A stretch of DNA of 64,000 nucleotides from an uncultured bacterium (GCA_964630595.1 CAZVVT010000001.1:568813-632812), one strand, 5' to 3'; shown: positions 560 through 31,402, numbered from the stretch's first letter. The notes: generated by a model not told the origin, from the sequence alone. Translations and numbers: made by a program.

Positions 560-1547
560 AGAGGACTATTTCAACACCCGCAAGGATGCCAAGCAGTTGC
601 GTAAGCTGCGCGGCCAGATGGACAAGTCGACTCCGAAGAAAGAAGAGCCGATGCCTGAGGGGCTGCCGGAGGGCCGAGTCATCTCCATACGGTCGGAAGC
701 TGTTGATGTTGCTATGCCCACAGGTGTGCTGCAGTGCACAATCAAGGGCTCTCTCAAGCAGCACGTTGGGCGCATCAAGAATATCGTCACGATTGGCGAC
801 CGCGTGCTGGTCGATGAGACGCAGATCGCCTATGTCTTGCCGCGCACGAGCGTCTTATCGCGCATTGACCCGAAGAACCACCGCCAAGAGCAGCTGCTCG
901 CCGCCAACATCGACCAGGTGCTCATCACCTTGTCAGCACAAACGCTCAAGCCGCACCTTGCCGACCGCTTCATCATCGCCGCGCGCCAAGGCAACATGCA
1001 CCCTCTCTTGGTCGTCAATAAGATCGACCTGGCTTATCCAGAGGAGTTCATCGAGCTCTACAGGAGCTTGGGTTATACCGTTCTTCCCGTCAGCGCTCTG
1101 TCGGGGAAAGGGATCAAAGAACTAAAAGCCGCGCTGAAGGGAAAGACCTCGGTTTTTGCGGGGCAATCAGGAACGGGCAAGTCATCGCTCATCAATCGCG
1201 CGCTGGGCGCCAACTTGCGCACTGCGGAGATTGTTGCGTGGAATGAGAAGGGTTCGCACACCACCACGGCCGTCACCCTCATTCCTGTGGAGGGTGGAGG
1301 GTACTGCCTCGACACGCCTGGCATCCGCTCACTGGGCATTATGAAGCTCGAGCGCGGTGACCTGATCGAACAGTTTCCCGAAATCGCCGCACTCAAATGC
1401 CGCTTCGCCGACTGCACCCACCAAGGCGAGCCCGGCTGCGCCATCGAGAACGGCACCGTTCACCCCATGCGCTACGACTCCTACTGCAAGCTGCAAGAGG
1501 AGATCAACTCTGTGCGCCGCCCCGGCAAGAAGGACCCGTCGTTCTAA
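519..1547 (+). CDS. rsgA: Ribosome small-subunit-dependent GTPase A (circularly permuted GTPase)
   Basis: Permuted G motifs VVNKIDL (G4), GQSGTGKSSLIN (G1), DTPGIRS (G3) and C-terminal Zn cluster CRFADCTHQGEPGC. Start ambiguous (ATG 519 or 546); overlaps the upstream gene. Confidence 0.9.
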   Translation: MPKLELSYYMDYAEEDYFNTRKDAKQLRKLRGQMDKSTPKKEEPMPEGLPEGRVISIRSEAVDVAMPTGVLQCTIKGSLKQHVGRIKNIVTIGDRVLVDETQIAYVLPRTSVLSRIDPKNHRQEQLLAANIDQVLITLSAQTLKPHLADRFIIAARQGNMHPLLVVNKIDLAYPEEFIELYRSLGYTVLPVSALSGKGIKELKAALKGKTSVFAGQSGTGKSSLINRALGANLRTAEIVAWNEKGSHTTTAVTLIPVEGGGYCLDTPGIRSLGIMKLERGDLIEQFPEIAALKCRFADCTHQGEPGCAIENGTVHPMRYDSYCKLQEEINSVRRPGKKDPSF

Positions 1548-1692
1548 TTTATCTACATTTAATTCCACTTTAAGTGAACCTAGTTCAGAATAGCTCTTCT
1601 ATAGTGGCATAACGAAGCAGCAAGACCAGATTCTCTTCCAGCAACGATGCGGGGATAACTCTGAAAAACCAGAAACACCAAGGAATATAAAT

Positions 1693-2496
1693 ATGAGTCA
1701 TGGAAAGCATTTTCCAGGTGCAAGCTACTACTGCATCTTAGAAGGAGACTCTCGATTCCTATTAGAACACTTAGGCTCGAGCGACCCTCTGTTCAAACAG
1801 CGCATTGAATTCAAAGAAAATTTAATTAACGATTTAGTTGCGAGAGTAGCGGATGCTGACCTTAAAATTAATCTGCTTTTAGAAATAAAAGAGATACACC
1901 ATGAAGAAAAAAGGAAATACCTATCAGCAGAGGAGTCTCTTGAATCTAGCCTTCTGGATGATGCTATACAAACAAATGTATTGGAAATAGCGGAAATTCT
2001 CGATGAATTTCTTAATAGGCTCCGCACAACGATTCCTGCCAGCTGCCATTTGTTCAGAAAGTCCACAAAAATTCTAGGTACAACAAGTGAAGTTTTTCAG
2101 AAAACATATATCTTATCTCGGTCTTTTTTATTTCCTGAGGTTGACGATGCTAAAAGTAATGGGAAGGTAAAAGATAGTTACTTTCACTCCATAGCTGACC
2201 GATTAAAAGCTATCGGAGAGCCAATTCTGACATTCAGAAACAAGGTTCTGGCCCACAAGTATGATAAAGACAGATTTTACACGCATTTATCCTTCGAAGA
2301 ATACCGCAAAATCAGAGATGCTTTTAAAAGCACTCTCGATGCTGTAGCAATCGTCGGAACATTATCTTCTAATGACTGGTTCATGACAAGATCACCTATA
2401 GAGATCAAAAGAACCACCCAATGGTTAACTGAAGGCCTTATAGCAGCTGCGCTACCTATTCGCAGAAACGGGAATACGGAGCCTACTCAACCCTGA
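1693..2496 (+). CDS. Hypothetical helical protein with HEPN-like R-x5-H motif (FRNKVLAHKYD); cargo of AT-rich islet 1
   Basis: 267-aa ORF with an AAGGA SD-like sequence about 8 nt upstream. Sampled 60-nt lines are 27-43 percent GC versus about 55 percent in flanking genes. No family recognised by eye apart from the RNxxxAH motif. Confidence 0.6.
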   Translation: MSHGKHFPGASYYCILEGDSRFLLEHLGSSDPLFKQRIEFKENLINDLVARVADADLKINLLLEIKEIHHEEKRKYLSAEESLESSLLDDAIQTNVLEIAEILDEFLNRLRTTIPASCHLFRKSTKILGTTSEVFQKTYILSRSFLFPEVDDAKSNGKVKDSYFHSIADRLKAIGEPILTFRNKVLAHKYDKDRFYTHLSFEEYRKIRDAFKSTLDAVAIVGTLSSNDWFMTRSPIEIKRTTQWLTEGLIAAALPIRRNGNTEPTQP

Positions 2497-2532
2497 TTTA
2501 GGTTAGCCTTAGATGCTAGGCGCTCCTTTAAC

Positions 2533-2631
2533 AACGGCGCCGTTCACCCCATGCGCTACGACTCCTACTGCAAGCTGCAAGAGGAGATCAACGCTGTGCG
2601 CCGCCCCGGCAAGAAAGATCCGTCATTCTAA
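2533..2631 (+). repeat. Orphan duplicate of the rsgA 3' end (32 codons + TAA)
   Basis: 94/99 nt identical to 1449-1547. Translates NGAVHPMRYDSYCKLQEEINAVRRPGKKDPSF* versus NGTVHPMRYDSYCKLQEEINSVRRPGKKDPSF* in rsgA. No rsgA body lies upstream of it. Confidence 0.95.
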
Positions 2632-2728
2632 GGAACAAGTTCCAATGTTCCACGGCAAAAATCGCGATTTTTTGGATGTAGATTACTGATTGCCAGATGG
2701 TTGATGGAGCGTGGAACAATTGATTCTC

Positions 2729-30285: not shown

Positions 30286-30377
30286 CTCAAGAAAAGTCGT
30301 CATTCCTGCACAAGTGACTTTTATTATTTAGCCATCTCATAATGCTCAGGACTTACTTGTTATTTTGGGAGGGTTTT

Positions 30378-31277
30378 ATGGCTGCAGTAGCTAGAAGTTT
30401 TGGTAGAGTAGCAGCAGGTTTCGCTAGTGCGGGTGCAAGCTCTATGGTGTTTGGCCGAAGGGTCTTCCATTGCGCCAGCGGAAAAAGCTGCGAGAGGATA
30501 GACATCACTGGCTCGATTACTTCAACAAATGACGACCTCAATCTAACTCGTGTTGTCGCGTCACAAGTTAACGGCAAAAACGTCGGGCTCTCGCTTTCGG
30601 CAGTCCTTTCGGACGTTACTGCCAAGGGGAACGTCAGGCTCTGGAATTCAACTGTCGACGGAAATGTTCTTGCTTCGGGAAACGTTACTTTTGAAAACTC
30701 CCGCTGCAATAGCAGGGTTGAAGTCGCGGGTTCTGTAACCTTACTCGATCACAGTCGGATTGGCTCTGGTTCTTCTGATGAAGCTTTTACGATAACAGAC
30801 TCTGCTGTCGATACTAGTTTCATTGCACAAGGCCCTGTAAAAGCCTGTCGCGCATCCATTTCTGGCCGGATTGTGTCTGAAGGAGAGCTACAGTTGGAGT
30901 GTTGCCACGTAGGTTCCGCAGCAGCACCATCGATGAGCATCAAAAAATCCACAATTTATGGTGATGTATCCACCGAAGTAGCAAGGATTTTCTTCTCTAG
31001 TATTCGCGGTACGCTTCGTTGTCGCCAATCAACTCTTGAACTCAAGGGCTGCACTATCAAAAATATTCATATCGCAGCTCCTCTCGAGAGCACCGAGGAG
31101 CTAACCGATAACGGAAAGCATGCGATTCGCGTCTTCTTAAGTGATGAGACAACAGTTGATAGTATAACTTTTGCTTCTGACTGTTGGGGAACCATTTATG
31201 CAACAAAAACAACAGCTACAGTTAAAAAGGTCGTCAACGGGCATTTCAATCTTTTTTGGGCTCTCTTTGCGCCATAA
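30378..31277 (+). CDS. Hypothetical beta-helix (bactofilin-like repeat) protein; cargo of islet 4
   Basis: ATG 30378 preceded by GGGAGG. Repeats such as VTAKGNVRLWNSTVDGNVLASGNVTFENSRCNSRVEVAGSVTLLD resemble polymer-forming bactofilin/DUF583 windings. Confidence 0.5.
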   Translation: MAAVARSFGRVAAGFASAGASSMVFGRRVFHCASGKSCERIDITGSITSTNDDLNLTRVVASQVNGKNVGLSLSAVLSDVTAKGNVRLWNSTVDGNVLASGNVTFENSRCNSRVEVAGSVTLLDHSRIGSGSSDEAFTITDSAVDTSFIAQGPVKACRASISGRIVSEGELQLECCHVGSAAAPSMSIKKSTIYGDVSTEVARIFFSSIRGTLRCRQSTLELKGCTIKNIHIAAPLESTEELTDNGKHAIRVFLSDETTVDSITFASDCWGTIYATKTTATVKKVVNGHFNLFWALFAP

Positions 31278-31284
31278 ACCGTCT

Positions 31285-31317
31285 TTTGTGGTAGCCATTG
31301 CGGACCTACTGAAATAA
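31285..31317 (+). repeat. Orphan duplicate of the tyrP-2 3' end (10 codons + TAA)
   Basis: 29/33 nt identical to 30253-30285; FVVAIADLLK* versus FVVAISDLLK*. The 10-mer agtcgtcatt is also shared at 30295-30304 and 31335-31344. Confidence 0.8.
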
Positions 31318-31402
31318 TGTCCTAAAGTTACCGGAGTCGTCATTAATGGGAGCTTCGGTCTTGTTTGGAGGCGCTTAATACGGTAAACTGTCTTTATATC
31401 TC

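Follow-up and report, generated by a model that had tools for sequence, protein, structure and literature searches.

Four single-gene islets bracketed by duplicated ends of housekeeping genes in a deep-branching member of the Chlamydiota

Introduction

Low-GC inserts that carry no mobility genes and lie between long direct repeats of chromosomal sequence form a described class, insertion with long target duplication (Nobusato et al. 2000, Gene 259:99; Furuta, Abe & Kobayashi 2010, NAR 38:2428, PMC2853133). The repeats of this class measure 30 to ~420 bp, are sometimes imperfect, and often span the start or stop site of the target gene, which is kept intact (PMC2853133). The published cases, mostly in naturally competent bacteria, come from a screen of restriction-modification (RM) genes; DNA breakage by the RM systems has been proposed as the driver, and a cycle of insertion, amplification and release has been hypothesised (PMC2853133). 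Here we analyse a 64,000-nucleotide stretch of DNA from an uncultured bacterium (GCA_964630595.1, CAZVVT010000001.1:568813-632812; hereafter the window, meaning all 64 kb), in which single foreign genes were inserted at four sites, in separate and old events that each brought in 0.64-0.98 kb of low-GC DNA. Each insert is bracketed by a 36-122-nt direct duplication spanning the stop or start codon of a housekeeping gene. With one copy of each repeat the gene stays intact, whereas the other copy is an orphan in decay. We refer to the four units as islets 1-4, to their repeat pairs as P1-P4, and to the enclosed genes as cargos 1-4.

The preliminary description of this stretch could not assign the islets to a described class of element; their architecture matches insertion with long target duplication (PMC2853133). 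Specifically, direct repeats of more than 30 bp of chromosomal sequence flank each islet, and the inserts are shorter than 20 kb, with no integrase, transposase or mobile element in or beside them. The islets differ from the published cases in that their cargos are non-RM genes (encoding an all-alpha protein, a GyrI-like/Cass2 protein, a P-loop kinase-like protein and an ORFan), that the host is a chlamydia of the obligate-intracellular type, that four events fall within 31 kb, and that the repeats are more diverged (78-95% identity), hinting at imported over copied gene ends.

Duplication of a gene end is also the textbook outcome of a Campbell-type event, in which a single crossover with a circle carrying a 3'-end gene fragment leaves an intact gene and a duplicated fragment around the insert. 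A related process, homology-facilitated illegitimate recombination (HFIR), is described for natural transformation (de Vries & Wackernagel 2002; Prudhomme et al. 2002; both as cited in PMC5361080 and PMC3240628). The islets resemble these processes in that a short homologous anchor would admit otherwise foreign DNA, and their host encodes RecA, RecBCD and a CoiA-like protein within the window. They differ in that the events are read here from sequence, that HFIR classically deletes, and that natural sources of ~1-kb circles are not known.

In arrays of rearrangement hotspot (Rhs) and contact-dependent inhibition (CDI) toxins and of type VI secretion system (T6SS) effector-immunity genes, incoming DNA displaces the 3' end of a gene and the orphan end persists downstream (Jackson 2009; Kirchberger 2017, PMC5361080), for which an integrase-free, HFIR-like displacement mechanism has been proposed (PMC5361080). 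The islets would share with them an anchor in a conserved gene segment and a displaced end that survives as an orphan. Those arrays swap polymorphic toxin tips and keep immunity genes, whereas the targets here are RsgA, BioB and TyrP, the termini are near-identical housekeeping sequence, the orphan is functionless, and cargo and target gene have no relation to each other. Islands at tRNA, tmRNA, guaA or dusA genes likewise duplicate a gene terminus at both ends and leave the target functional, but they measure 5-100 kb and carry an integrase and an attachment (att) core, whereas the islets are smaller than 1.1 kb and have neither a recombinase nor a common core.

Results

Each of four direct-repeat pairs encloses one low-GC gene

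The host is a deep-branching member of the Chlamydiota; the window contains a TopA-SWIB fusion, a Pmp-like autotransporter and tandem tyrP genes, and the best named matches of its RsgA belong to Chlamydiales and Rhabdochlamydiaceae, at no more than 50% identity. The GC content of the window is 54% overall, and the GC content at third codon positions (GC3) of its core genes is 0.57-0.78. A word-7 self-blastn of all 64 kb returned direct-repeat pairs P1-P4 (E values of 3e-34, 5e-11, 2e-31 and 6e-4, respectively), the paralogy of tyrP1 and tyrP2, and one 26-nt palindrome, with no repeat pair in the 33-64 kb part. All four pairs reported previously were thereby re-found at their coordinates, and the report that each pair encloses a single open reading frame (ORF) also stands for all four. 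The repeats, which consist of the termini of rsgA, bioB, tyrP1 and tyrP2, are 99, 69, 122 and 36 nt long (the last up to ~63 nt) and 78-95% identical between copies. The inserts are 640-985 nt long and hold one ORF each, with GC3 values of 0.36, 0.39, 0.33 and 0.42 for cargos 1-4. The only real genes of the window with a GC3 below 0.45 are these four cargos and a neighbour of islet 3, ORF 26594-27163 (0.37). The pattern described earlier is genuine and not due to chance. The islets are laid out as follows.

1449-1547, plus strand: P1 left copy, the functional last 32 codons and TAA of rsgA (ORF 519-1547; RsgA_GTPase Pfam)
1548-2532, plus strand: insert 1, GC ~0.40, with cargo 1 (ORF 1693-2496, 267 aa)
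2533-2631, plus strand: P1 right copy, an orphan rsgA end that retains frame and TAA and runs into the native rsgA-eno spacer
11914-11982, plus strand: P2 left copy, within the bioB 3' end (ORF 11029-12033), with the conserved TTPNP motif kept
11983-12622, plus strand: insert 2, GC 0.44, with cargo 2 (ORF 12142-12645, 167 aa)
12623-12694, plus strand: P2 right copy, an orphan bioB end that reads ...GLTTSR and then TAG, with TTPNP changed to TTHNP
27228-27349, plus strand: P3 left copy, an orphan tyrP1 leader and first 25 codons, with two conserved glycines altered (G to E, G to R)
27350-28022, minus strand: insert 3, GC 0.41, with cargo 3 (ORF 27393-27968, minus strand, 191 aa)
28023-28143, plus strand: P3 right copy, the functional tyrP1 leader and start (ATG at 28067; Trp_Tyr_perm Pfam)
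30250-30312, plus strand: P4 left copy, the functional last 11 codons and TAA of tyrP2 with ~27 nt of trailer
30313-31281, plus strand: insert 4, GC 0.47, with cargo 4 (ORF 30342-31277, called as 299 aa from 30378)
31282-31350, plus strand: P4 right copy, an orphan tyrP2 end with TAA and trailer that runs into the trpS upstream region

An assembly artefact is ruled out by independent identical contigs and by copy-specific variants linked to the cargo. Specifically, Logan contigs from four other runs (SRR12808457, SRR12808459, SRR12822863 and SRR9903538) are 100% identical over islets 2, 3 and 4 and their core flanks. For islet 1, a contig covering window positions 1479-2569 (L001) carries, on either side of cargo 1, the variants that distinguish the P1 copies, and it ends exactly at the 53-nt identical run of P1, as expected from a k=31 graph.

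Gene order in relatives bears on whether the sites were once empty, a comparison made at the level of gene order only, for islets 3 and 4 and for the rsgA-eno adjacency. Distant syntenic chlamydiae retain the order thyX-tyrP-tyrP-trpS, with a thyX-tyrP gap of ~18 nt (L085) and tyrP-trpS gaps of ~55 nt (L084) and ~160 nt (L086); these gaps are so short that cargo 3, ORF 26594-27163 and cargo 4 must be absent there. Empty sites are thus seen for islets 3 and 4 in these three contigs. Judged by sequence and synteny, the islets are real insertions of foreign single genes.

Islet 1 carries a horizontally acquired gene at the end of rsgA

The P1 copies (1449-1547 and 2533-2631) agree at 94 of 99 nt, share an identical run at 1456-1508 (53 nt), and end exactly at the rsgA TAA. 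Three of the differences between orphan and functional copy are synonymous, all being GC-to-AT changes at third positions. Cargo 1 is predicted to be an all-alpha protein by its AlphaFold2 model (pLDDT 79), for which no PDB neighbour was found, and it has no Pfam, NCBIfam, PADLOC or PHROG match. Its homologs in other chlamydiae are 75-78% identical in amino acid sequence, while the RsgA proteins of those low-GC genomes reach only ~50%, a disparity indicating that cargo 1 was horizontally acquired; nucleotide homology (78%) is limited to window positions 1679-2490. Elsewhere the homologs lie in integrase/IS66 or AbiE neighbourhoods. The preliminary description had asked whether the cargo genes occur elsewhere between other duplicated gene ends; for cargo 1 they do not, no gene-end repeats being found around the homologs in L088, L104 and L105, which makes the duplication a property of the recipient event and not of the cargo. 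A scan of islet 1 for promoters and terminators was uninformative.

The cargo 1 family comprises 26 proteins, mostly from chlamydial metagenome bins, in which R182 and H188 are invariant (R-x5-H) and sit in the conserved stretch R-x-K-V-L-A-H-K-Y-D. The R-x5-H arrangement resembles the HEPN RNase motif, a resemblance in sequence that is only a lead. The homologs often stand beside AbiE systems or after a 67-aa ORF that abuts or overlaps their start. At window positions 2494-2631, the TGA of cargo 1 is in frame with the orphan RsgA tail, from which 12 sense codons separate it, and reading through this stop would add the 32 residues of RsgA to the cargo 1 protein; the arrangement is probably a coincidence.

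In genomes resembling that of Chlamydiales bacterium 38-26 (L092), the cargo 1 homolog lies in a ~5.5-kb segment with sulfatase, NUDIX and DUF2608 genes, bracketed by a 1-kb direct repeat (4915-5916 and 11404-12403) of two whole genes, encoding a DUF1398 protein and a metallophosphoesterase. The identity of this repeat is mosaic (85% over the first 300 nt, 99% over the next 300 nt), and it adjoins an AbiEi/AbiEii pair; the layout is the same bracketed one on a larger scale. In L104, downstream of the cargo 1 homolog, a 67-nt direct repeat (2969-3035 and 7199-7265; 82%) surrounds an ABC-transporter block beside a phage-type integrase, and these repeats are likely the att sites of a conventional integrative element. 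In L098, rsgA and eno are neighbours too, and their junction holds a different island without an rsgA-end repeat, namely a five-gene polymorphic-toxin island with an Ntox50 toxin and MafI2 immunity protein (8337-12138). The rsgA-eno junction looks like a recurrent landing site of accessory genes.

At islet 2, bioB and cargo 2 each run across a junction

The P2 copies (11914-11982 and 12623-12691) agree at 54 of 69 nt and 18 of 23 aa. The left copy, which had been placed near the bioB 3' end, is not the end of the gene itself: the working bioB continues for 17 codons into the AT-rich insert DNA, and P2 stops two codons before the apparent ancestral stop. The BATS domain of BioB ends at residue 314, and the terminus preserved in the orphan is apparently the ancestral short BioB C-terminus. 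At the other junction, the last 8 codons and the stop of cargo 2 lie in the orphan bioB copy, in another frame. Cargo 2 is a putative GyrI-like/Cass2 small-molecule-binding protein (Pfam Cass2, 4e-28; GyrI-like, 2e-17).

Two further genes adjoin this locus. An ankyrin-repeat gene (12719-13675; GC3 0.45) splits the bio operon between the P2 orphan and bioF, and a gene for a protein tyrosine phosphatase (PTP)-like phytase/dual-specificity phosphatase (10206-11144) overlaps the bioB start. Both look like effector-type accessory genes. Flanking repeats were sought around the ankyrin gene, the PTP-like gene and ORF 26594-27163, and none was found.

Islets 3 and 4 adjoin the tandem tyrP genes

In islet 3 the orphan lies on the left. 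The P3 copies (27228-27349 and 28023-28143) agree at 33 of 45 positions in the leader (~41-45 nt) and at 72 of 77 in the coding part, with an identical run of 28 nt; the functional copy begins tyrP1, which the Logan gene call gives as 358 aa. Cargo 3 is probably a small P-loop kinase-like protein (Pfam AAA_18, AAA_33 and CPT, all below cut-off) of a rare family, whose best match is 54% identical; an ORF on conjugative plasmids of Legionella shares 34% identity with it. The adjoining low-GC3 gene is as follows.

26594-27163, minus strand: ORF of 189 aa with no family, between thyX and the P3 orphan leader

This ORF is probably an earlier insertion at the thyX-tyrP junction, one that has no flanking repeat.

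In islet 4 the coding parts of the P4 copies (30250-30285 and 31282-31317) agree at 31 of 36 nt, and their trailers align with gaps around a common 10-mer, AGTCGTCATT. Cargo 4 is an ORFan, matching only itself in 5.8 billion proteins. None of the four cargos is an RM or recognised defence gene by Pfam, NCBIfam or PADLOC, the only hit being a weak mad8 match for cargo 3.

Divergence between repeat copies hints at imported gene ends

Two readings are the most probable. In the one that we favour, with a probability of about 0.5, a ~1-kb piece of DNA with the cargo and a relative's diverged gene end would have been integrated by host RecA, through a single crossover or through homology on one side only. 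In the other, a tentative alternative, the long target duplication arose in situ: foreign DNA would have been joined illegitimately at widely staggered breaks, or via replication or template switching, so that the 36-122-nt target was copied on both sides. The copies would first have been identical; later the orphan would change neutrally, and the functional copy by synonymous changes only. Read literally, the described class implies this model (Furuta 2010), which requires no unsampled donor.

The pattern of substitutions separates these readings in part. The earlier count of nine synonymous to five non-synonymous differences in pairs 1, 3 and 4 was reproduced, and all four pairs (90 codons) contain 18 synonymous and 11 non-synonymous differences, with a ratio of non-synonymous to synonymous differences per site (pN/pS) of 0.21. 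In simulations of the in-situ course, the orphan evolved neutrally, and the functional copy took up mostly synonymous changes, with non-synonymous ones accepted at 5%. Eighteen synonymous differences were reached in 0.3% of runs with a flat mutation spectrum and in 11% with kappa = 4 and a four-fold GC-to-AT bias; thus 18:11 exceeds the neutral-orphan model in 89-99.7% of simulations, depending on the mutation spectrum (P = 0.003-0.11). In-situ duplication is therefore unlikely to yield the synonymous excess under mild or no mutation bias (P = 0.003-0.03), and yields it in up to 11% of simulations under strong bias. Plain dN/dS, considered as proof of import, was downgraded after this simulation.

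Furthermore, divergence in the repeats is 3-4 times higher outside the coding sequence than within it. The P3 leader differs at 12 of 45 positions (27%) versus 5 of 77 (6.5%) in the coding part (Fisher P = 0.003), and ~48% of alignment columns in the P4 trailer are diverged versus 14% in the coding part. Because a neutral orphan should decay evenly, this excess fits orthologs that diverged under constraint; moreover, under GC-to-AT bias the AT-rich leaders should mutate less than the coding parts if the copies arose in situ. The earlier claim that both copies diverged while coding thus retains moderate support from pN/pS and the non-coding excess, support that shrinks under mutation bias.

Other features suit in-situ duplication. 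At conserved residues the orphans have acquired changes that disable them (G to E and G to R in TyrP, TTPNP to TTHNP in BioB), the three GC-to-AT third-position changes of the P1 orphan are what neutral decay in a GC3-rich gene would produce, and the junctions on both sides look illegitimate. The enzymology for staggered cuts of 100 nt is not known, which counts against it. The orphans are dead remnants under import and in-situ duplication alike, and the two do not contradict each other, as an islet founded in situ could afterwards spread by excision via its repeats and Campbell-type re-integration.

The insertions are old, given the 5-22% divergence between copies and the decay of the orphans. 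The islets had been described as active or recently active, which does not agree with this divergence, with the disabled orphans, or with the restriction of identical runs of at least 28 nt to P1 and P3. Only these two pairs (53 nt and 28 nt, respectively) keep identical runs long enough for efficient RecA-mediated excision.

Junctions show no sign of a dedicated recombinase or cassette system

In Pfam scans of 50 ORFs, which together span most of the 64 kb, no integrase or transposase was detected in the islets or elsewhere in the window, consistent with the preliminary description. The four repeats have no k-mer in common (7-10 nt, up to 2 mismatches), and the four inserts have no terminal inverted repeats or common ends. 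No Rfam element and no tRNA was found at the sites, the sole tRNA found, tRNA-Arg (4548-4623), lying away from the islets. Mismatches are spread along the repeats without an identical core, and the junctions cut into ORFs. The cargo stop codons lie 36, 0, 43 and 4 nt from the repeat in islets 1-4, respectively.

Site-specific integration of the tRNA/guaA/dusA type, which had been offered as one option, is not supported: there is no common core or tRNA, repeat lengths and identities vary, and the junctions cut ORFs. A variant of this option assumes that another part of the genome encodes a tyrosine or serine recombinase, which would act in trans on an element bringing a replacement gene end. 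Regeneration of the gene terminus and the flanking direct repeats would suit such an enzyme, and the recombinase searches covered the 64-kb window. It is nonetheless improbable. In the absence of a shared motif, inverted ends, a tRNA or an integrase in 64 kb, a dedicated site-specific recombinase is unlikely; the repeats are 36-122 nt long with scattered mismatches where an identical core would be expected, ORFs are truncated or extended at the junctions, and four targets would require four specificities.

Still less probable is local tandem duplication or slippage of a gene end followed by separate insertion of foreign DNA between the copies. Direct repeats 0.7-1.1 kb apart could have begun as tandem duplications, but two independent rare events would be required at each of four sites, the 64 kb contain no cargo-free tandem duplication of a gene end, and a low-GC3 gene lies inside every repeat pair. 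The earlier view that slippage fits less well is therefore upheld. Integron-like or transposon-like cassettes bounded by attC sites or inverted repeats can, like an assembly or binning artefact, be set aside almost entirely: the units are single-gene and cassette-like and the Pfam family of cargo 2 is named 'integron-associated effector binding protein', but 0-43 nt between cargo stops and repeats leave too little room for attC (an imperfect palindrome of at least ~55 nt), there are no inverted or common ends and no integrase, and the identical independent assemblies and cargo-linked variants speak against an artefact.

Other genes and a palindrome in the window

Contrary to the earlier statement, the rest of the window does not consist only of core genes; the autotransporter, the PTP-like phytase, the ankyrin protein and ORF 26594-27163 are present as well. 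Recombination and repair genes cluster at 46379-62853 and encode a UvrD-like helicase, RecA, a CoiA-like protein, RecD, RecB and RecC. The genes located in this cluster and upstream of it are as follows.

32431-34392: UvrB, upstream of the cluster
37350-39782: TopA-SWIB fusion, upstream of the cluster
50080-51132: RecA, from the Pfam scan
53424-54128: CoiA-like competence protein, from the Pfam scan
56685-62853: RecD, RecB and RecC, from the Pfam scan

A perfect palindrome of 23-24 nt, AAATGTAAAGC(C)GGCTTTACATTT, occurs twice in the window, where none is expected by chance. One copy (2730-2752) lies 98 nt to the right of the P1 orphan, in the native rsgA-eno spacer at the stop of eno, and the other (58077-58100) is within the 3' part of a recB-like ORF. 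The palindrome is outside the duplications; it could serve as a terminator hairpin or represent a small palindromic repeat element.

Discussion

The preliminary interpretation of the islets as imports stands in part: they are real insertions of foreign single genes, and import of the gene ends is plausible, while its site-specific, recently active and undescribed-class components are not supported. Under the import that we favour, the source would be a short DNA molecule of a related chlamydia in which the cargo was physically linked to that organism's own copy of the gene end, and entry would be by transformation within a co-infected host cell. Integration could take either of two routes, with a small circle undergoing one Campbell-type crossover in ~100 nt of homology, or with a linear fragment using a homology anchor on one side and an illegitimate join at the other. 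The functional gene end next to the cargo would then be a chimera, and the displaced end of the resident gene would be left as an orphan beyond the cargo. An illegitimate join is supported by islet 2, where the bioB frame continues into insert DNA and the stop codon of cargo 2 lies within the orphan copy. The machinery is probably the host RecA, RecBCD and CoiA-like competence protein. Chlamydia takes up DNA via a ComEC homolog (PMC6686042); ComEC was not searched for in the present genome. Later, the direct repeats could excise an islet as a circle of repeat plus cargo that would be able to re-enter a relative.

The consistent involvement of gene termini needs no targeting. Intergenic spacers in the window are only tens of nucleotides long, so any duplication of ~100 nt must overlap a gene terminus. 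Selection would do the rest, because only duplications over a start or stop codon leave essential genes working.

Several points weigh against import. Classical HFIR usually deletes recipient DNA instead of duplicating it, and the formation and cell entry of ~1-kb circles are unexplained. The synonymous excess falls to P ~0.07-0.11 under strong transition and GC-to-AT bias, and the non-coding excess is only P ~0.03-0.1 if a 1.5-2-fold rate difference is allowed, by arithmetic on the same counts. The public assemblies of the organism are all 100% identical, and thus offer no presence/absence polymorphism. Finally, the postulated donor lineage is unobserved: the searched collections contain no close relative, the next RsgA being 50% and the next GroEL 74% identical. 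Specifically, a scan of genome contigs with GroEL gave a best match of 74% without synteny, and a metagenome scan with TyrP2 gave at most 46%.

A bolder extension of import, which we regard as doubtful, is a recombinase-free, RecA-dependent cassette system in which ~1-kb circles excise via their own repeats, pass between related chlamydiae sharing a host cell, and re-insert at the same gene terminus through one homologous crossover. If this were true, the ends of core genes would be universal 'att sites', and obligate intracellular bacteria would trade single genes in an integron-like manner without a mobile-element enzyme.

Insertion with long target duplication has so far been documented almost only for RM genes and attributed to their DNA cutting. 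The four cases with unrelated, non-nuclease cargo, found in a compact chlamydial genome, suggest a host-driven, general route. Given sequenced relatives, the pattern of divergence between repeat copies is a rare handle on whether gene ends were imported or copied. The islets thereby suggest, in concrete and testable terms, how single genes may still reach obligate intracellular bacteria that have few mobile elements.

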